In this document: positions 2,230 through 22,059 of the stretch, one piece after another
Numbering within the stretch: position 1 is the first letter of the stretch
How the letters are laid out: each line of letters opens with the position of its first letter
Assembly (NCBI GenBank): GCA_964577675.1
Contig: CAZNZQ010000002.1
Span: forward strand, 1 to 60,350
Source: an uncultured Candidatus Saccharibacteria bacterium
GTDB lineage: Bacteria; Patescibacteriota; Minisyncoccia; Phycocordibacterales; UBA5272
Direction of reading: 5' to 3'
DNA length: 60,350 nt
Notes under the pieces: generated by a model
The model's input: the letters and a program-made list of their open reading frames with translations, nothing else
Told to the model about the DNA's origin: nothing
The model's database searches: none
Program-made: the position numbers and the translations under genes

Positions 2230-5200
2230 ATGGCGTATACTAGGGACATGACAAAGCTAAGTGAAGAAAGAACTGATTTCAATCAATCGTTTGAGAAGAG
2301 ACATAAAGGGTTAAATGACGCACAGAAAAAGGCGGTTGATGCGATAGACGGTCCGGTGATGGTGATAGCAGGACCAGGAAGTGGGAAGACGGAGCTCTTG
2401 TCGCTTCGCGTTGGTAATATTTTACGAAATGGGAATGCGAGAGCGTCCAACATCCTGTGTCTCACATTTACCGAGACTGCGGCGCGTAATATGCGGGAGA
2501 GATTGGAGTCGCTCATTGGGCCGGATGCATTCCGTGTCGCAATCTATACTTTCCACTCATTCTGTACTGATGTTATAGGGAGATATCCAGAATACTTTTT
2601 TGATCATATTACTTTTAAACCAGCGAGTGACTTAACGCAAAGTGAAATATTAGAGGATATTTTTAAGCGACTACCACATAAGCATATACTAGGCGCATAC
2701 CACCCAGAACGCGGGTATGCGTATCTCAAGGAGTGTCAGGTGAGAATAAAAGATATTAAGAAGGGAGGTCTGACCCCATCACGATTCAAAGAGATCTTAG
2801 ACGAGAACGCTAAGAGTTATAACGCTCTTCATAAGGTGCTCGATCAGTATCTTCCAGAGCGTATAGGTAAAGATGCTCTCTCGGCGTTTGAGAGTATGAA
2901 AGATGCTTTCACTAAGCTAGATACCAATCTCTCACGAGTGCTCGCTGCCACAATCTCATCTGCCATCAGTGAGGCCGAGGTGAAAGAGAAGAATACCCCA
3001 CTTTCAGAATGGAAAAGTTCCTATACTGGTAAAGACGAGAACGGCAACCGTGTCCTAAAAGAGTATCTAGCTCTTCCTAAGCTCTACGCTCTCACGGATG
3101 TATACGAAAAGTATCAGAAGGCGCTCTACGAAGGAGGACTCTTCGACTACGAGGATATGATTATTCAAGTGGTTGAAGCGCTCTCACGTAACGAAACACT
3201 GCGCGCAGAGCTAGAGGAGCAGTACCACTATATTATGGTGGACGAATTTCAAGATACGAACAACGCTCAACTCTCTCTTGTTAAAGCGCTCTCAAGTAAT
3301 GAAGTGCATGAAGGGAGAGCAAACGTCTGTGTGGTAGGGGACGATGACCAGGCTATCTATAAATTTCAGGGAGCAGAGATTTCTAACATCCATTCGTTTA
3401 AAGAGCTGTATAAAGATGTAGAGGTTATAGTGCTTACTGAGAACTATCGTTCGACACAGGAGGTGCTCGACTTTTCACGCATCATCGTCACTCAAGGTGT
3501 GAATCGTCTGGAGAATCATTACAAGGAAATCTCGAAGAACTTGGTTGCCAAGAATACATCTCTTCCAAAAGGAAATATTTTTACCTACTCATTTAGAACA
3601 GAAGAGGAAGAGTATGCATATATTGCAAAAGAAATTAAAAAGCTTCTAGATTCTGGGGTGCCAGCAAAGGAGGTGGCGGTGATTAGTCGTGAGCATAAGG
3701 GGCTTACCACGCTCCTCCCGTATCTCGACAATCAGCGCATTCCGTATACCTATACACGAAAGGAGAACGTGTTTGATGAGCAGCATGTGAGGGAGCTGAT
3801 TACCCTTTGTAGATTCCTGGCGAGTGTGGGGAGTGTTGCGTCAATTAAGGATGACTTGCTACCAGAGATACTTTCATTTAGCTTTTGGGGCATTGACCGA
3901 ATCACTGTTTGGAAAATAGCAGAAGAGGCTAAGCGTGAACATATCTCATGGCTAGAGGCTATGCAGCGGTCTGACGTAGAGACCGTTAGAAATATTGCGT
4001 TATTCTTAACAGAGCTCGGGGTTCTGTCACTTACTACACCGCTTGAAATTATCTTAGACACACTCATTGGCAGTAAAGATATGCCGCTAACGAGCGAAGA
4101 CGAAGAGGAAGATTTTTTATCATACAGCACACTCACACTTAGCACATCGTATACTTCGCCGTATAAGACATATTACTTTGGTGAAGAAATCCTCAAGCAT
4201 TCGCCGAGTAAGTATATTCACTTTCTGTCTTCGCTCCGTGTTTTTATGCGTGGGCTTAGAGAGTGGCGTCACGGCGACATGATTCAGGCAAAGGATGTTG
4301 GAGACTTTGTCGATATGCATATCGCGTATAACATCCCGCTTACCAATACGACCCCCTTTGCTCACAATGAGAACTCTGTAGAACTGCTCACATCTCACGG
4401 TGCTAAGGGGTTAGAGTTTGCGTATGTCTTCGTTATCTCACTTAATGATTCAATATGGGCGGGAGGAAGAAAGGGGAGTAAGATTAGCTTTCCTAGTAAC
4501 CTGCCACTTGCAAGTGCCGGAGATAATGAAGATGATTTCATCCGTTTGCTTTACGTAGCTCTCACACGTGCTCGTCATACACTGTATCTTACGCACCACG
4601 AGGCACTGCTCAGATACCTTCAACATGAAAATATTCCAAAGAGTGAAATCCAAGAAGTCAGCGAGTCCTCTCTTCATATTGCAGCTGGGCTTTCGCCATA
4701 CCATGCGCCACCATTTGCAAAAGATGAGCAGGCTCTTTTGAAAAAGGTGATAGAGGGGTATAAGTTATCACCAACACACCTCAACAACTTTTTGGACGTG
4801 ACTAAAGGCGGGCCGATCACATTCTTGGAGCAGAATATCTTGCGGTTCCCTCAGTCCAAAACCCCAAGTGGTGTATATGGGTCGGCAATTCATAAGGCGC
4901 TCGAAAAGGGTCAGGTATATGTCACAAAGACACGGAAGCTGCCACCACTTTCGCTACTACTCGATGCATTTAGAAGAGAGCTTTCGTATGGGAGACTTCT
5001 TACTCACGAGGAAGAAAAGTTACAAGATAGAGGGGAGAAAGTGCTTACGAGGTACTATGAACTCTCTAGTGCTACTTTTGACGGTAGGGCTATAGTTGAA
5101 GCTAACTTTGCTAACGATGGTGTAGTGGTTGACGGCGCTCACCTAACAGGGAAGATCGATAAGATGACTGAAAAAGAAGACAAGGTTCTTTCTGTGGTGG

Positions 5201-14066: not shown

Positions 14067-15530
14067 ATGGCCTCCATCGAGGAACTTCGTGATTCAAGAC
14101 TAAAAAAGCTCGACACCCTCAAGCACGCCGGGGTATATCCTTACCCGAGTAAGTCGGCTAAGACTCATGATCTGGAGATAGTTGAAAAAGATTTTGTCCT
14201 TCTTGAAGGGAACAAGACAGACCTGGTTGTGGCGGGTCGTGTTATGACCTCTCGAGGGCAAGGTGCGATAGCTTTTCTTGATCTTTATGACGGGACTGCG
14301 CGTATGCAAGTGGTAGTGAAGTTACCAGAGTCATCTGAAGAAACGATGGCTTTTTTGCGCAACTACGTTGACGTTGGTGACTTTATTGAGGTGAACGGGG
14401 TCGCCTTTACAACGAAGAGTGGTCAGCACAGCGTTCTCGCTACACAAATTTCCATGCTATCTAAGGCGTTGCTTCCACTTCCTGACAAGTATCACGGTCT
14501 TCAAGATGAAGAGTTACGTATGCGCGAGAGATATCTCGATATTTTAACTAACCAAGAACTTAAGGATTCTTTTGTTAAGAAGGCGAAGTTCTGGAAAGTG
14601 GTAAGAAACTTTCTCGATAGTCACGGATTCTTGGAAGTAGAAACACCAACAATTGAGGTAACAACAGGCGGGGCAGAGGCACGACCATTTAAGACACACC
14701 ACAATGATTTCGACCTCGAAGTATACATGCGTATTTGTATAGGTGAGTTATGGCAAAAGAGACTAATGGCAGCAGGGTTCCCAAAAACATACGAAATCGG
14801 TAGAGCGTATCGTAACGAAGGCTCCTCACCAGACCATCTTCAAGAGTTCACTAATTGTGAATTTTATATGGCGTACGCAGATTATGAAAAGGGTATGATC
14901 TTGGTACAGGAACTCTATCGCACGATTGCAAAAGAAGTATTTGGTACTACTTCATTTTCTACACGTGGGCACACGTTTGATCTTGATGATGAATGGAAGA
15001 GAATAGATTATCGTGAAGAGATACTTCGTCAGACTGGGGTTGATATAGATACTGCGAGTAACGAAGATGTCGAGAATAAACTAAGAGAGCTCAATGTTAA
15101 GTATGACGGCAATAACCGTGAACGACTCACCGACACGCTCTGGAAGTATTGCCGTAAAAATATAGCTGGTCCCGCGTTCCTTATTAATCATCCGAGCGTT
15201 GTTGCACCTCTTGCTAAGAATAATAGAGACGGAAAAACAACGCAGGTGTTTCAACCTATCTTAGCTGGTAGCGAGCTTGGGCGTGGGTACAGCGAACTTA
15301 ACGATCCTCTTGATCAACGGGCGAGGTTCGAGAAGCAGCAAGAGCTTTTAAACGCAGGGGATGAAGAAGCGATGATGGCTGACTGGGACTTCGTCGAGAT
15401 GCTTGAGCACGGTATGCCGCCTACGTGCGGGTTTGGATTCGGTGATAGATTATTCGCTTTCTTTTCTGACAAACCGATTCGTGAGACACAAATGTTCCCA
15501 CTTGTTAAGCCGAAAATAAATGAAGTATAA
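14067..15530 (+). CDS. lysS: Lysyl-tRNA synthetase, class II
   Basis: N-terminal OB fold, then class II motifs YRNEG..., EFTNCEFY and GFGFGDRL. Confidence 0.95.
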   Translation: MASIEELRDSRLKKLDTLKHAGVYPYPSKSAKTHDLEIVEKDFVLLEGNKTDLVVAGRVMTSRGQGAIAFLDLYDGTARMQVVVKLPESSEETMAFLRNYVDVGDFIEVNGVAFTTKSGQHSVLATQISMLSKALLPLPDKYHGLQDEELRMRERYLDILTNQELKDSFVKKAKFWKVVRNFLDSHGFLEVETPTIEVTTGGAEARPFKTHHNDFDLEVYMRICIGELWQKRLMAAGFPKTYEIGRAYRNEGSSPDHLQEFTNCEFYMAYADYEKGMILVQELYRTIAKEVFGTTSFSTRGHTFDLDDEWKRIDYREEILRQTGVDIDTASNEDVENKLRELNVKYDGNNRERLTDTLWKYCRKNIAGPAFLINHPSVVAPLAKNNRDGKTTQVFQPILAGSELGRGYSELNDPLDQRARFEKQQELLNAGDEEAMMADWDFVEMLEHGMPPTCGFGFGDRLFAFFSDKPIRETQMFPLVKPKINEV

Positions 15531-15631
15531 ATTCTTATAATGGTGCATTAAAGAGCTTCAGGGGGTACTAGTTGACAAGCTGTTAATTAACAGATAGTAT
15601 CTTGAAAGACTTAAAAGAAAGGGTTCACATA

Positions 15632-16243
15632 ATGAACAAACTAGCTCTCATTGTATATGATTCTGATTTCTACCATCGTCGTCTAGCGGTAAAATTAAAA
15701 AACTATCTTACCAGTATTAGAGTTACCGTAGAGACCTGCCCAGTTAAAGATGGGGCACTTTCTCGGTTATCACAAACAGCAAGTAGATGCGGTGAAGGAA
15801 CAGTGTTTCTTTTGGTGTATATTGGACACGGAGAGAAGATGGGGTGGAAGAACATTGTGTCATACGCAGATATAGCCCAAGTTTTAAAAAACATTGGACC
15901 ATTGGTGGTTATCAATGAAACTTGTTACGGATTGCGGCTGTTGTCGCTTTTGAGAAAAACTAGAGAGACTCGAAACACTCTCTTTATAAGTCCTTTTGGA
16001 TCAAGAGGTGAAACGTATGCAAGAGCTGTAGAAGATGTTTTGCGCGCATGGCCTTATGCTCGCACACTAGAAAGCTTTTGTGGCGGAATCATCCAGCTTC
16101 GTTCTTTTGGAAATTCTAAAGTGTATCCCCCTCAAGTCAGGTGGGGGGCAGCATATGAACCCCATTTCTTTGGGGACAAGCAAAGGCCAGACCTCGTTCA
16201 AGGATGTGCGACAACTCTCCCGCCTGGTGGATTTTTAAAATGA
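15632..16243 (+). CDS. Stand-alone caspase-fold (clan CD/CHAT-like) putative cysteine protease
   Basis: A beta-strand-His motif (VFLLVYIGHG) and a beta-strand-Cys motif (LVVINETCYG) lie 32 residues apart, with an N-terminal LALIVYD strand. The track ORF starts at TTG 15602. Confidence 0.5.
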   Translation: MNKLALIVYDSDFYHRRLAVKLKNYLTSIRVTVETCPVKDGALSRLSQTASRCGEGTVFLLVYIGHGEKMGWKNIVSYADIAQVLKNIGPLVVINETCYGLRLLSLLRKTRETRNTLFISPFGSRGETYARAVEDVLRAWPYARTLESFCGGIIQLRSFGNSKVYPPQVRWGAAYEPHFFGDKQRPDLVQGCATTLPPGGFLK

Positions 16244-16257
16244 TATTTTTCTTTAAC

Positions 16258-16284
16258 AAAGCGAGCACATACTCGCTTTTTTTT
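16258..16284 (+). terminator. Intrinsic terminator of the cassette gene
   Basis: aaagcgag-cacata-ctcgcttt followed by a T-run. Confidence 0.65.
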
Positions 16285-16310
16285 GTAAAAAAGTAAATAA
16301 TCTTTTAAAT

Positions 16311-16424
16311 AAACCGATTCGTGAGACACAACTATTTCCGCTTGTGAAGCCAAAAGCAGAGCAAATATTTAGTACTACTAAAAAAGCGCAGAGACTTAAA
16401 AGCCTCTACGCCTTTACTCTTTAA
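16311..16424 (+). pseudogene. Displaced lysS 3'-terminal fragment
   Basis: It reads KPIRETQLFPLVKPK..., where the intact gene reads KPIRETQMFPLVKPK. It has no upstream ORF and ends near a hairpin (gcgcagag...ctctacgc). Confidence 0.6.
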
Positions 16425-16499
16425 CGAATACTTTTACCAATTAGGGTGTGGTGAGTACTGTTCGCTAAGAGCTTATATCCGTAATCGATTCAATTAGTG

Positions 16500-16918
16500 T
16501 ATGAATTCAACTTCGGTCAATACGTATCTCTCATATCAGGGTTCCCAATAGAGTGAGATAACGGCAGGAAACCAACATTCAGAAGATCTTCTCTGAATCG
16601 CTGGTCCATAGCAAAAGTCGTGTCATACGCTTTCGTGATGAGTCCTCAGTATCCATTACTTGACCTTTGGCAAGAGGCTCTTTGCTAGTAGAGCGTCTGA
16701 TTTCTTTTCCGGTATTCATAGGGTTTACCTGCTTTTTTTGCTTCGATACCATGAAGCTTACAGATATTTTCTTGAGTTCCAATGTTGTTTACTTTCAACG
16801 ATTGGAGAACCCTCTCAATACTCGTGCATTGTATGGTGTCAATCACAAAATGTCTTTGGGTTAAATTGCTCAGACGTGCGCTACGAGAGTCGCTATCACT
16901 TCCTTTGATATCTATCAT
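16500..16918 (-). pseudogene. Frameshifted NADAR (YbiA/DUF1768)-like remnant
   Basis: AGGAG lies 6 nt before the ATG (16918). The N-terminal half (RLSNL..FVIDTIQCTSIERVLQSLK..EAKKAGK) follows the NADAR pattern (E. coli YbiA: FSNF...PTSEHYFQAQK). The C-terminal half continues in other frames (GQVM...LLLWTSD). Confidence 0.4.
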
Positions 16919-17069
16919 GAGATTCTCCTAGAGAAAGTGGTTATTGTAAGGCGCAGGGTACATAACCATGCCACTGTTTTAGTCTGTTAAAGTCAAAATT
17001 CCAGAGACTACTTGGTTAATACCTTCATAGCCAAAGATATCCACATTTTTCAGCTTTTTTTATAACAAA

Positions 17070-17105
17070 GTGGGGTATAATGGGGCTTAGTGGGGGGAAG
17101 TGGGA
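17070..17105 (+). promoter_or_regulatory. Four (G/A)TGGG MraZ-box repeats at 10-bp phasing, overlapping a TATAAT box
   Basis: GTGGGG at 17070, ATGGGG at 17080, GTGGGG at 17090 and GTGGGA at 17100. TATAAT lies at 17076-17081. The array sits 42-77 nt upstream of mraZ. Confidence 0.65.
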
Positions 17106-17146
17106 GCTTCTCAAAAATATGCCAATTTTATCCCTACTAACGAATT

Positions 17147-17581
17147 ATGCTAATCGGAAAGTACACTCACGACCTAGATCCTAAAAAAAGACTGACGCTT
17201 CCCTCAAAGTGGCGCACAGACTTAGGGAAGAAAGTAGTGGTAACAAGTGGACTCGATTCTTCGCTCTTTGTCTTCGGTGTAAAAGAATGGGAAGTCGTCG
17301 CACAGAAACTATCTAACAGTGGTTTTGGTAACCTCGACAGCAGAAGCTTTAATCGCTTCATGCTTGCGAATGCTTATGAGACTGATGTTGATGCAGCTGG
17401 ACGCATTGTCATCCCAGATAATTTAAAGGACTTCGCTAAGCTTTCGTCTAAGGTAGTTCTTGCGGGTATGTATTCCCGCGTAGAGCTTTGGAATGAAGAA
17501 GCGTGGAATGTAAATATTTCAAAAGTAAATGGTGAGGCGGACGCGCTCGCGTCTAAGCTTAGCGACCTAGGAGTTCTTTAA
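17147..17581 (+). CDS. mraZ: Transcriptional regulator MraZ
   Basis: Contains two SpoVT/AbrB-like repeats, DPKKRLTLP and DAAGRIVIP. Confidence 0.95.
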   Translation: MLIGKYTHDLDPKKRLTLPSKWRTDLGKKVVVTSGLDSSLFVFGVKEWEVVAQKLSNSGFGNLDSRSFNRFMLANAYETDVDAAGRIVIPDNLKDFAKLSSKVVLAGMYSRVELWNEEAWNVNISKVNGEADALASKLSDLGVL

Positions 17582-20607: not shown

Positions 20608-22059
20608 ATGAGTTATACTGACCTAATGTCAGTTAATCCTCTTAGAGCCAAGAAGCTTTCCGAAAAAGAATATATAGGTGGAACTGTCATATACCAGATG
20701 TGTCGTGATATCCGTGCGCAGGACAACGATGCACTACTATTTGCACAGGAACTAGCCAAGAGTAAAGGGTCACAGCTTATTGTTAACTACGTTATTTGGA
20801 ACTACGAATGGGAGGGGGCGACCAGAAGGTTCTATGACTGGGTGCTGCCGTCCCTTAAAGAAGTTGAAGAAACTCTTCGTAATAACAACATTCCGCTTGT
20901 GGTCACTCTAGAAGACGAGAAGCTTTTTGTTAAGAATAAGTTTACAAAAGTCCCCGAAAACGTAGGTGCTGTAGTCATCGACCAGCTCCCTCTCCGTTTT
21001 ATGAGAAAATGGAAAGAGCATTTTTTGGAGCTAGGGCAGCACGTTTCTCTTTACGAGGTTGATACACATAACTGTATTCCAGTATGGGAAACTTCTTCTA
21101 AACAGGAGTTCGCAGCGCGTACCATAAGAGGCAAGATACACGCTAAGCTACCTTCCTTTTTAGAAGCGCACGGGAAGCTGCTCTCTCATGATGAGAATGA
21201 GGAACTTCTTAAAAGCCTTAAGGGTAACGACTGGCAAGCGGTTAGTTCAAAAATCAAATGTAATGAAAGTGTTATAGGGGTTGGCCTATTTACTCCAGGT
21301 GAGAAGGCTGCTAAGGAAATGCTTAATCACTTTTTGTCAGATAAGCTCTCACACTACGACACTTCACGCAACGACTTTACGGTTGATGGACAGAGTAATC
21401 TGTCACCATATATTGCGCACGGGAACATCTCAAGGAGAACGATTATCCTTCAGCTTTTGAAAATAGCAGAACTTAAGATAGAAGATGCGTTTGACCCAGT
21501 TATGAATGGTTCAAATGGGAGGCTCGGTAGTGTTGCTGCGTTTATAGAAGAGTGTGTGGTGCGCGCTGAACTCTGTGATAACTTCTGCTACTACAACGCC
21601 TCGTATGATAAGGTTGAGGGCTTTCCTGCTTGGGCGAAGGAGACGCTCAGTAAAGCAAGGACTGATAAGCGCGAATATACCTACAGTCAGAAGGAGCTTG
21701 AAGATGGCAGAACGCACGACGATATCTGGAACGCGGCGCAGTCTCAGATGGTCAAAACAGGTAAGATGCATGGGTATATGAGAATGTATTGGGCAAAAAA
21801 GATTCTTGAATGGATGTCCACTCCAGAAGAGGCGATGAAGGCGGCAGTGTACCTCAATGATACATATGAATTAGATGGAAGAGACCCAAATGGGTATGTT
21901 GGTTGTGCTTGGTCAATCGGAGGTGTGCATGATAGGCCGTGGTTTGGTCGTCCGATATTTGGAACAGTTAGATACATGGCGAGATCGGGTGTTGAAAAAA
22001 GAGGAGATGTAAAGGTCTACGAACGTAAGTGGTTAGGTGGTGAGCAGAGTTTACTGTAG
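20608..22059 (+). CDS. phr: Class II CPD photolyase
   Basis: The C-terminal GYMRMYWAKKILEW...YLNDTYELDGRDPNGYVGCAWSIGGVHDRPW is the class II signature. Confidence 0.9.
   Translation: MSYTDLMSVNPLRAKKLSEKEYIGGTVIYQMCRDIRAQDNDALLFAQELAKSKGSQLIVNYVIWNYEWEGATRRFYDWVLPSLKEVEETLRNNNIPLVVTLEDEKLFVKNKFTKVPENVGAVVIDQLPLRFMRKWKEHFLELGQHVSLYEVDTHNCIPVWETSSKQEFAARTIRGKIHAKLPSFLEAHGKLLSHDENEELLKSLKGNDWQAVSSKIKCNESVIGVGLFTPGEKAAKEMLNHFLSDKLSHYDTSRNDFTVDGQSNLSPYIAHGNISRRTIILQLLKIAELKIEDAFDPVMNGSNGRLGSVAAFIEECVVRAELCDNFCYYNASYDKVEGFPAWAKETLSKARTDKREYTYSQKELEDGRTHDDIWNAAQSQMVKTGKMHGYMRMYWAKKILEWMSTPEEAMKAAVYLNDTYELDGRDPNGYVGCAWSIGGVHDRPWFGRPIFGTVRYMARSGVEKRGDVKVYERKWLGGEQSLL

Follow-up and report, generated by a model that had tools for sequence, protein, structure and literature searches.

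The last 15 codons of lysS are present twice in the window (the whole stretch of 60,350 nt analysed here), on either side of a small inserted gene. The 46-nt duplicate looks like a recombination scar and not like the footprint of a self-contained mobile element. The spacer between lysS and mraZ in which it lies was shown to be a strain-variable hot spot, and the inserted gene was shown to be foreign to the genus. The explanation that we favor is a form of 'insertion with long target duplication': homology-anchored plus illegitimate recombination would have placed two diverged alleles of the hot spot one behind the other. In our judgment it has about an even chance of being correct.

The duplicated end of lysS

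The features of the region are:

14067–15530, plus strand: lysS, encoding a class II lysyl-tRNA synthetase, intact, 487 aa, ending in FFSDKPIRETQMFPLVKPKINEV (KPKINEV, then stop)
15471–15516, plus strand: copy A, lysS codons K469–K483, still joined to lysS
15471–15491 (second occurrence 16311–16331), plus strand: 21-nt block identical in copies A and B, candidate crossover or core segment
15572–15600, plus strand: promoter-like site TTGACA-17-TAGTAT, sigma-70-like, 10 of 12 consensus matches, putative function
15580–15593: perfect 14-nt palindrome CTGTTAATTAACAG between the promoter hexamers
15632–16243, plus strand: cargo gene, 203-aa predicted stand-alone caspase-fold (clan CD-like) protein
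16253–16306, plus strand: terminator and 14-mer (stem-loop at 16258–16279, T-run, then GTAAATAATCTTTT at 16293–16306)
16311–16356, plus strand: copy B, orphan lysS codons K469–K483 (KPIRETQLFPLVKPK), without a start codon and in no gene
16380–16411, minus strand: hairpin GCGTAGAG/CTCTGCGC with T6, probable terminator of the convergent gp30.3 gene
16440–16918, minus strand: gp30.3-family (PF08010) pseudogene with TAG at 16685–16687, TGA at 16646–16648 and a frameshift near 16520
17035–17146, plus strand: mraZ promoter/operator region, in which homology to relatives resumes
17147–17581, plus strand: mraZ, following its promoter/operator region

The lysS product matches the Pfam families tRNA-synt_2 (1.3e-66) and tRNA_anti-codon and is 91–94% identical to the nearest LysRS proteins. 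Since the upstream copy is complete, lysS remains intact; the downstream copy is an orphan, as the original prediction had it. A repeat search found one direct repeat (15471–15528 versus 16311–16368, spacing 840 nt), which is unique within the 738-kb genome. No further copy of the 21-nt core was found in the genome, the best other match having four mismatches. The duplication of the last ~15 codons at these positions had been predicted and was confirmed, and 39 matches in 46 nt were counted again. The identical stretch (AAACCGATTCGTGAGACACAA) is 21 nt, not 20 nt as first given, and sits at the exact 5' edge of the repeat. When compared with the lysS of 45 relatives, this block shows 3 to 10 differences each and is identical in none of the 45.

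All seven differences between the copies fall within the last 25 nt (p ~0.009 by hand calculation; p ~0.02 if third positions only are considered). In the eight codons shared, five of six differences are synonymous third-position changes (p ~0.02 by hand calculation for at least five of six), and ATG is changed to CTA, replacing M by L. Copy B carries Leu at a variable position that is Met or Ile in all of the closest LysRS proteins, 17 in number and 85% identical or more. The differences look like divergence of coding sequence, and their pattern fits two lysS alleles, as had been proposed, better than a recent slip. Polarisation with relatives placed only four changes firmly on the B branch, of which three are third-position changes and one is a first-position change, and the third-position bias falls to p ~0.11 if restricted to these four. 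Over the distal 25 nt, copy A is 2 to 6 and copy B 5 to 7 differences away from the four closest relatives, which is not decisive for which tail is native.

A possible source of the second copy is a target duplication made in situ, in which the recipient's own 46 nt were doubled at insertion, as in the classical form described in PMC2853133. The copies would have been identical at first, copy A then taking only synonymous changes while copy B drifted. The pattern of the four firm B-branch changes alone is not significant and would allow this, and the decay of the gp30.3 gene shows that the region had time; the restriction of all seven differences to the distal 25 nt and the synonymous nature of five of the six codon differences argue against it. 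In addition, the terminator between the copies resembles a lysS flank and implies a donor of the homologous locus rather than an unrelated insert. We consider in situ duplication highly improbable.

By blastn, the homology of the copy A region to close relatives stops at 15514–15518 and is back at 17035–17038, and 17068–17152 shows 93% identity to one of them (L076). A sliding-window comparison of lysS with 12 relatives gave no breakpoint and hence no mosaic signal. No plus-strand ORF with a start codon covers copy B. An antisense ORF of 51 aa overlaps copy B and passes through the cassette terminator, and it was taken to be spurious. At the joint on the left of copy B (16310/16311), a possible overlap of AAAC or ATAAAC is seen at 16307–16314. 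A dif-/Xer-type site in the core was considered and rejected by eye, the palindromic arms not being visible.

The repeat is not an assembly artefact. Both junctions are present, with zero differences, in Logan contigs of two runs from one wastewater study: record 6 of X1 spans 15476–16689, and records 11 and 14 of X2 span 15424–15597 and 16092–16514. The two runs are not independent of the assembly because they are possibly the source samples themselves. The window comes from a metagenome-assembled genome with a local depth of just ~4–6x, and other relatives of the genus occur in the same samples as diverged contigs over lysS, so that a chimera joining two co-occurring strains had to be considered. 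However, Logan contigs (k=31) from the two runs extend without mismatch through the interval from end to end, junctions included, and the shared block of 21 nt is shorter than the k-mer. A chimera is thus extremely improbable.

The inserted gene, its terminator and a decayed neighbor

The cargo protein has one close homolog (47%) among 5.8 billion proteins and 47 cluster representatives as distant relatives. H66, G67 and C98 are invariant across 27 homolog sequences, H66 lying within GHG. Searches against Pfam, NCBIfam and PHROG found nothing above noise, including the Peptidase_C14 and C13-type families. The AlphaFold model (pLDDT 91.7) has its best PDB fold matches in GSU0716, caspase-6, drICE, the GPI-transamidase complex and legumain, with TM scores of only 0.43–0.56. 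The model predicts a caspase-like alpha/beta fold with a putative His...Cys dyad in clan CD order. The family is found in one of 53 species of the genus, and the gene is absent from the other 52 and from the viral contigs. The sole 47% homolog lies in an unrelated gene context and has no lysS tail beside it. As a minimal caspase-fold protein of a small family without a curated model, the cargo is of interest in itself.

The interval between the copies was first described as one ORF plus its terminator and as lacking an integrase. The ORF is indeed the single intact one and no integrase is present, the recombinases of the genome being on other contigs; the description omitted the sigma-70-like promoter, which is also there. 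The intrinsic terminator downstream of the cargo gene was detected by a terminator scan. The 14-mer that follows it, just before copy B, has an exact match in the post-lysS terminator region of L076/L131 (lysS 91% identical). The distance from the A(A/C)AAAGCG octamer, which opens each terminator, to the 14-mer is 37 nt both in the window and in L076/L131. This is suggestive, not proof, that the terminator and 14-mer are collinear with a relative's native post-lysS region, the comparison consisting of a single 14-mer with equal spacing in one relative. The collinearity would mean that the supposed cassette interval includes lysS-flank DNA of the clade.

Behind copy B lies the decayed gp30.3-family gene. 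It gives a Pfam score of 5.4e-18 over the first 77 aa and, with X in place of the two stops, of 3.7e-30 over profile positions 4–122 of 138; the C-terminal motif carries on in another frame, as judged against intact homologs. Recoding was ruled out by the two types of stop codon (TAG and TGA) together with the frameshift, and the gene was called a pseudogene. The hairpin between this gene and copy B pairs 8/8 (one G-U) on the minus strand, whereas on the plus strand one pair is a C-A mismatch and the T tract is poor. Copy B had been read on to 16424. This apparent in-frame extension is probably explained by the minus-strand gp30.3 terminator and is no lysS tail. The post-B sequence was also considered as a lysS-type terminator, and its likeness to L037/L033 is weak (p 0.02–0.06); a gp30.3 terminator fits better. 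The gp30.3 family occurs in four of 53 species of the genus, and in the other three the gene lies elsewhere, flanked by a trmH-like gene and mreB. The spacer of the window is thus made of three modules: an intact caspase-fold gene, the orphan copy B and a convergent decayed gp30.3 gene.

The lysS-mraZ spacer and similar scars

The order greA-lysS-[spacer]-mraZ is kept across the genus and the order, and also in 53 further metagenome loci. In ~80 relatives the length of the lysS-mraZ spacer varies from 116 to 3153 nt and the ORFs within it are unrelated. Even relatives with 92–94% identical LysRS differ from each other, with an empty spacer of 228 nt (L036/L073) versus an ORF of 144–170 aa. The relatives carry a single lysS tail, and no second lysS-tail duplicate was found among ~110 lysS 3' ends. 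No integrase-like ORF was seen in 18 long spacers read (mostly by eye, two by Pfam), and the only mobility gene seen was an IS200-like Y1 transposase at one distant locus. With this one exception, the locus combines conserved core flanks and alternative cargo with an absence of mobility genes, as integrase-free hot spots do.

Similar scars are found at other genes. In the same genome, the fusA tail and terminator are duplicated around 2.7 kb. In a second genome (G007), two copies of the fusA tail (37/40 nt) flank one insert, and another short fusA-tail-like piece lies behind a second module; the two fusA-tail copies each precede alternative downstream contexts known from other species. Terminator-region duplications flank inserts in L102, L105, L108 and L060. 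The scar boundaries vary (46, 40 and 12 nt before the stop codon; 9–11 nt after the stop codon), and the scars in these genomes share no core. Short fusA-tail-like pieces in G014 and G004 were not significant against shuffles and were not counted. Tail duplicates are rare (lysS, 1 of ~110 gene ends; fusA, 2 of ~40), so any general mechanism is inferred from few cases. The original prediction took the repeats to bound a discrete integrating element. This view is not supported, given a hot-spot spacer that seems to have lysS-flank DNA inside, a second cargo adjoining copy B and varied scar boundaries.

The genome encodes RecA (3.6e-138) and ComEC (3.8e-45), and a profile search found MutS_V absent from it. 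Its recombinases, one of the tyrosine and two of the large serine type, are on contigs C11, C1 and C3, away from the lysS contig. Loss of MutS has been reported to raise recombination 40- to 100-fold at 15–23% divergence, the range in which the authors invoke homology-facilitated illegitimate recombination (HFIR; PMC6382021). The fusA scars in the same genome and in relatives, the presence of RecA and ComEC and the absence of MutS suggest recombination of diverged DNA, rather than dedicated elements, as the driver of gene-content variation here.

Possible origins of the scar

In the favored explanation of allele stacking, allele 1 would consist of the lysS end (copy A), the caspase-fold gene together with a promoter of its own, and a lysS-type terminator. 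In allele 2, a 46-nt piece from the lysS end of a different lineage (copy B) would be accompanied by the convergent gp30.3 gene, since decayed. DNA of a diverged relative bearing the other allele would have been taken up and, at one of its ends, recombined into the chromosome by RecA within the conserved flank. The opposite end would have been joined by illegitimate or short-homology recombination because there was too little homology at that end. The donor, the enzymology of the joint and the direction of the event are presumed. With one homologous and one illegitimate end, the cargo would be added rather than swapped and one lysS tail would be left as an orphan. The terminator and 14-mer before copy B and the second cargo after it would then make two 'tail plus flank' modules in tandem.

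Several points weigh against allele stacking, among them the single relative behind the 14-mer match and the rarity of tail duplicates. A purely illegitimate joint does not predict the 21-nt block at the repeat's 5' edge (p ~0.01–0.02), which a crossover in the core does predict, and neither allele could be traced to a donor lineage. The GTDB species genomes and the 120 nearest LysRS proteins yielded no KPKAE(Q)-type lysS tail. A pattern scan across GTDB for ...ETQLFPLVKPKAE likewise gave no B-type tail on any lysS, and a looser scan with RETQLFPLVKPK gave 11 loci, none near copy B at the nucleotide level. In the relatives searched, lysS is followed neither by the cassette nor by a gp30.3 gene.

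The block at the edge would be accounted for by site-specific integration of the att type, with a replacement terminus and a recombinase supplied in trans, by a CIME-like or satellite element. In this scenario a small circle (21-nt core, lysS-like tail, caspase-fold gene and terminator), now or always without its own integrase and likened to e14 in icd, would have entered at the core in lysS. Past the core, copy A would be the element's and copy B the host's original end. The attL/attR geometry is exact, with an identical 5' edge, a sharp loss of homology left of copy B and tails diverged rightward; the DNA left of copy B, however, resembles the clade's native lysS flank. The ORF is restored through the attached copy and the insert is a self-contained promoter-gene-terminator unit, yet the interval and the 18 long spacers read show no integrase and the ~110 lysS 3' ends no second tail duplicate. 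Serial stacking of fusA tails in G007 may resemble accretion at an att site, although the other scars lie at quite different repeat positions without a common core. The three chromosomal recombinases could act in trans; the core is not found elsewhere in the genome. A very short core is normally sufficient for large serine recombinases, which counts against the scenario.

Precedents for att-type integration are e14/icd-icdC (PMC13626634) and CIMEs (PMC5704250). Against such integration, the viral contigs contain neither the lysS tail motif nor a relative of the cassette. A degenerate lysS-tail pattern, searched as a phage attP in IMG/VR, gave no match, and no cognate integrase element at lysS was found in the genomes, metagenome contigs and viral contigs searched. 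The original prediction had called for an empty lysS site in related genomes, for the cassette beside an integrase or recombinase elsewhere and for junction variants lacking the insert. The first two were looked for and not found. The empty site (...FFSDKPIRETQLFPLVKPKAEQ...) and a circle joint were likewise missing from the reads, a weak population test at ~4–6x depth, and the Logan contigs of six runs contain no variant lacking the insert, only the assembled form or read-sized fragments. On balance, att-type integration is possible and rather unlikely.

The same geometry, in which the crossover falls in an identical block and a hybrid copy ends up on either side, is predicted for a cassette without a recombinase gene that is moved by the host RecA, by loop-out between the tail copies and Campbell-type re-insertion. 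After transfer, a single crossover would take place in the longest identical block of the recipient lysS tail. RecA is present and MutS absent, and loop-out between direct repeats is known; on the other hand, competence brings in linear single strands and not circles, and the block is short. In model bacteria 21 nt is at or below the minimal length for efficient pairing. A circle, an empty site or a second genomic location of the cassette was not found, and the only homolog of the cargo has unrelated surroundings and lacks a lysS tail. This route is quite improbable.

Allele stacking resembles several known systems in part. Insertion with long target duplication (Nobusato et al., 2000; Furuta et al., 2010, PMC2853133) gives inserts with target duplications of 30–400 bp, without mobility genes and mostly in competent species; in one Haemophilus influenzae case, repeats of 46 bp overlap 15 bp of a gene end. 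The lysS locus likewise has no mobility gene, and its direct repeat of more than 30 bp (46 nt) is single-copy in relatives and overlaps a gene 3' end, as often in the described cases. Unlike here, where 7 of 46 positions differ in an allele-like manner, in the described cases both copies and the empty target are all near-identical. Further differences are that the cargo lacks a restriction-modification system, that the host belongs to the CPR (Paceibacteria-type) and that a true empty-site strain was not found.

[quoted passage not shown] According to that summary, it adds foreign DNA with no enzyme encoded by the element and is favored without MutS, and the present genome has RecA and ComEC and misses MutS. 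In contrast, the documented events in the summary usually replace recipient DNA, and gene-tail duplicates are not described in it. Integrase-free hot spots are turned over via recombination at flanking core genes (Oliveira et al., 2017, PMC5635113; PMC3787668), as are the minimal mobile elements of Saunders and Snyder (2002), in the outline given by PMC3787668. They share with this locus a fixed core pair (here lysS and mraZ), alternative cargo, the lack of an integrase and a turnover ascribed to homologous recombination in the flanks. A clean double crossover leaves no duplication, whereas here the alleles are stacked with an orphan tail.

The e14 prophage in icd with its icdC pseudogene (Hill et al., 1989, in the description of PMC13626634) is a precedent for a housekeeping protein gene as attachment site, and the mention of tRNA and tmRNA targets alone in the original prediction was too narrow. 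By that description, the incoming 3' end is rich in synonymous changes and the original gene end persists as an orphan on the far side; an identical core at the upstream repeat edge (here 21 nt) is a further likeness. The prophage is 15 kb with its own integrase and SOS-induced excision according to the same source, whereas the lysS interval is 0.8 kb without a recombinase, and neither excision nor an empty site was seen. CIMEs (PMC5704250) have repeats that include the target-gene end, lack integration genes and can form tandem arrays; unlike the lysS insert, for which no cognate element was found at lysS in any relative, they are defined by known ICE/IME att sites.

In CPR bacteria, genomes are tiny, classical mobile elements are few and gene gain is poorly documented. 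The locus gives a base-level view of one route of gene gain, in which a fixed gap between core genes receives, without an integrase, single genes that differ between lineages, and an imperfect event left a datable scar in the form of a spare gene end. A wider proposal, which we regard as distinctly unlikely, is that Paceibacteria-type CPR move single-gene cassettes without a cassette-encoded recombinase via diverged host gene tails. Such cassettes may carry the synonymously diverged last 10–15 codons of a conserved gene (lysS, fusA, others) and may leave by loop-out and return at a short identical core by means of the host RecA (in a MutS-less background) or of a chromosomal recombinase in trans. 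If true, essential genes would stay intact while cargo piles up behind them, and a core-directed cassette moved in trans would be a new, very small kind of mobile unit.

The lysS terminus and its duplicate

A repeat search of the window reported one direct repeat, 15471-15528 versus 16311-16368, with a spacing of 840 nt. This bears out the original prediction that the lysS terminus is present twice, as copy A attached to the gene and as an orphan copy B; the two agree at 39 of 46 positions over the stretch coding for K469-K483. The identical start of the repeat is real and measures 21 nt (AAACCGATTCGTGAGACACAA), not 20 nt as predicted. All seven mismatches are confined to the last 25 nt. The predicted five synonymous third-position changes (among six differences in the eight codons common to both copies) and the single Met-to-Leu replacement, through ATG>CTA, were also recovered. 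Copy B lacks a start codon and is part of no gene in the ORF calls of the window, so that its description as orphaned holds. The repeat has no further occurrence in the 738-kb genome, and a whole-genome search found no additional copy of the 21-nt core. Two runs of a single wastewater study, which may be the source samples of the genome assembly, gave Logan contigs that span both junctions and the entire interval with 0 mismatches. This contradicts an assembly artefact, which we consider very improbable; a chimera was ruled out since the identical block is shorter than the k-mer of the Logan contigs. The features of the region are as follows.

14067-15530, + strand: lysS, ending in FFSDKPIRETQMFPLVKPKINEV and the stop codon
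15471-15516: copy A
15572-15600: promoter-like TTGACA-17-TAGTAT upstream of the cassette ORF
15580-15593: perfect 14-nt palindrome CTGTTAATTAACAG between the -35 and -10 hexamers of the cassette promoter
15632-16243, + strand: cassette ORF (caspase-fold gene), intact, 203 aa
16258-16279 plus T-run: clean intrinsic terminator of the cassette
16311-16356: copy B
16411 down to 16380, - strand: hairpin and T6 run directly behind the gp30.3-family gene
16918 to ~16440, - strand: gp30.3-family (PF08010) gene

Directly 3' of copy A, four unconserved codons precede the stop. The interval had been described as one ORF plus its terminator with no integrase; this stands, except that a promoter-like site is present as well. 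The palindrome would suit the operator of a dimeric repressor. The gp30.3-family gene is dead: its frame is interrupted by a TAG and a TGA, and its C-terminal motif carries on in another frame. The in-frame extension of copy B to 16424 is regarded as misleading, as it covers the hairpin and T6 run predicted to act on the minus strand. Three modules thus make up the lysS-mraZ spacer of the window, namely the caspase-fold gene, the orphaned tail of lysS and the decayed convergent gene. Composition is unremarkable (GC 0.431 versus 0.428 for the genome).

The spacer in relatives and the origin of the two alleles

The order greA-lysS-spacer-mraZ is kept in the genus and in 53 more metagenome loci, down to ~61% LysRS identity. 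The spacer is 116-3153 nt long in relatives and ~1.6 kb in the window, and its cargo differs unrelatedly by lineage: small membrane ORFs, faint Clp_N-like ORFs, a large ORF rich in Cys, and proteins that look secreted (membrane, Cys-rich and secreted-looking kinds were assigned by eye). Spacers differ even among genomes with 92-94% identical LysRS. The spacer is empty (228 nt) at L036/L073, carries an ORF of 144-148 aa at L033, L037 and L039, and holds other ORF combinations at L074 and L075. An ORF of 144-170 aa in these last five loci and L011 may be recurrent hot-spot cargo; one member has a weak precomputed Clp_N match and the L074 member has no Pfam match. Homology between the window and close relatives ends at 15514-15518, just past KPK, and restarts at 17035. 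Reading the ORFs in each of the 18 longest spacers, mostly by eye and two by Pfam, we saw no integrase-like protein. The only mobility gene among the spacers read is an IS200-like Y1 transposase gene (L100:6029-6688) in a distant relative. Inspection of ~110 lysS 3' ends showed no second copy of the tail. The cassette family is present in one of 53 species of the genus and the gp30.3 family in four, in three of which the gene sits elsewhere, with a trmH-like methyltransferase gene on one side and mreB on the other; this makes both cargo genes accessory here. Those three gp30.3-family (PF08010) genes are intact (155-157 aa; loci L183, L184 and L185 of genomes G437, G003 and G011).

At the position of the Leu of copy B, all 17 LysRS proteins with at least 85% identity have Met or Ile. 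Over the distal 25 nt, copy A shows 2-6 differences from the four closest relatives and copy B 5-7. No mosaic breakpoint was found in lysS. The cassette terminator and the GTAAATAATCTTTT behind it are collinear with the terminator region that natively follows lysS in L076/L131 (LysRS 91% identical), and the distance from the terminator-opening octamer to this exactly matching 14-mer is 37 nt in both. The inter-repeat interval thus appears to include the clade's own lysS-flank DNA and not solely foreign DNA. The simplest description would be symmetrical: two hot-spot alleles in tandem, joined at 16310/16311, allele 1 being the lysS end, cassette and terminator, and allele 2 the lysS end and gp30.3 gene.

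Searches for an integrating element were empty. Looking for an empty site or donor, we found no lysS with a B-type tail, either across the species genomes of GTDB or in the set of 120 nearest LysRS proteins. The cassette was not found together with a recombinase: a search of 5.8 billion proteins gave a single close homologue of its protein (47% identity), in an unrelated context, and neither cassette relatives nor the lysS-tail motif were found in IMG/VR. No excision joint was found in reads, at a depth of just 4-6x. The genome encodes one tyrosine recombinase (C11:4194-4715) and two ~440-aa large serine recombinases (C1:28378-28812 and C3:44034-44468), all off-contig from the lysS locus. Membership tests placed the insertion neither among integrase-bearing elements nor among CIMEs. 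In form, the lysS locus behaves like the predicted replacement-terminus insertion. It agrees in most respects with an "insertion with long target duplication", but its copies are allele-like and not identical. The event is of a type already known; from this lineage there is hardly any record of such events.

Parallel scars and possible mechanisms

Self-comparison of the genome revealed a second scar. The final ~13 codons of fusA, together with spacer and terminator (C4:25077-25162), recur at C4 27766-27813 and 27927-27976 with 87-88% identity. The duplication spans C4:25077-27976 (L044:3078-5977), with copies ~2.7 kb apart. They are separated by a minus-strand gene for a TrmB-family regulator and by ~1.7 kb of GC-richer DNA that has neither a convincing ORF nor a match in Rfam; the downstream copy has ~113 nt extra between tail and terminator. 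In another genome, G007, a 40-nt fusA tail is repeated 483 nt downstream (37/40 identity); within the codons that the two tails share, both differences are synonymous. Behind tail 1 comes the long structured element found after fusA in several species, and behind tail 2 the 75-nt hairpin module found there in other species. We read this as two alternative alleles stacked, like the lysS locus.

At the G007 locus (L057:2361-3012) the second tail (2884-2923) is certain. A possible third tail-like piece (~2993-3010) lies behind the hairpin module; such short pieces showed no significance against shuffles. Between these are a long hairpin and a 113-aa membrane ORF, whose stop codon immediately precedes the second tail in the same frame, then the ~75-nt module (TACGACTATATTTTC...). 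A long imperfect hairpin ~110 nt past the fusA stop is conserved in several species of the genus, at L051, L053, L054, L057 and L058 (…TTTAGCGCA..CTTTGTC.GCGCC…GGCGC.TTCGCG..CTGCATCTAAAAT…) and may be a structured RNA or elaborate terminator. In ~1 Mb of relatives' loci, terminator regions are directly duplicated around inserts at L102:5463-5870, L105:5691-7212, L108:1154-1761 and L060:2406-3324 (35-64 nt, 87-94% identity). In at least three of the four, the duplicated DNA is a terminator hairpin plus adjacent sequence. These duplications, from other Patescibacteria, adjoin lysS, fusA and a PBP-like gene, and they resemble "long target duplications" with a terminator at the centre. Contig C11 of the window's own genome also carries a perfect 142-nt direct repeat (21408-21549 and 21879-22020, 471 nt apart). 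Tail duplicates are rare (lysS, 1 of ~110 ends; fusA, 2 of ~40).

Target duplications of 30-400 bp, among them 46-bp repeats overlapping a gene end, flank insertions without mobility genes, mostly in competent species (PMC2853133). Integrase-free hot spots whose turnover runs via flanking core-gene recombination are well described (PMC5635113), minimal mobile elements among them (PMC3787668). RecA and ComEC are present in the genome, and MutS domain V was not found in the 92%-complete assembly. Loss of MutS gives 40-100-fold more recombination between sequences 15-23% diverged, a range for which homology-facilitated illegitimate recombination has been invoked (PMC6382021). The best explanation, to which we give about an even chance, is one homologous exchange plus one joint lacking adequate homology. 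Incoming DNA with the other hot-spot allele would recombine in one conserved flank; its other end would be joined without adequate homology, so that cargo would be stacked instead of exchanged. Stacking of this kind would leave short orphan tails (33-46 nt), as a longer homologous arm would permit clean exchange. In situ duplication followed by drift is a poor fit to the clustered differences and appears improbable.

The 21-nt identical block at the repeat edge (p ~0.01-0.02) is unpredicted by stacking and is the main argument for crossover within a core. Such a crossover could be the work of a trans-acting recombinase that uses att-type sites, as in e14/icd (PMC13626634) or CIME (PMC5704250). 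Repeat boundaries across the scars vary from 46 nt 5' of a stop codon to 11 nt 3' of one, which argues against a single site-specific system. We consider the trans-acting recombinase unlikely, at about half the weight given to stacking. A circular cassette looped out and in by RecA would also supply a core crossover; we rate it well below the recombinase and barely above in situ duplication.

The caspase-fold cargo protein

The 203-aa cassette protein matched no Pfam, NCBIfam or PHROG family. Its distant relatives comprise 47 cluster representatives, and H66, G67 and C98 are invariant across 27 aligned members. AlphaFold models it with high confidence (pLDDT 91.7). The structures that match the model best in the PDB have a caspase fold (GSU0716, caspase-6, drICE, the GPI-transamidase complex and legumain) with modest TM-scores of 0.43-0.56. 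The cargo is read as a putative minimal clan-CD-like His/Cys protein.
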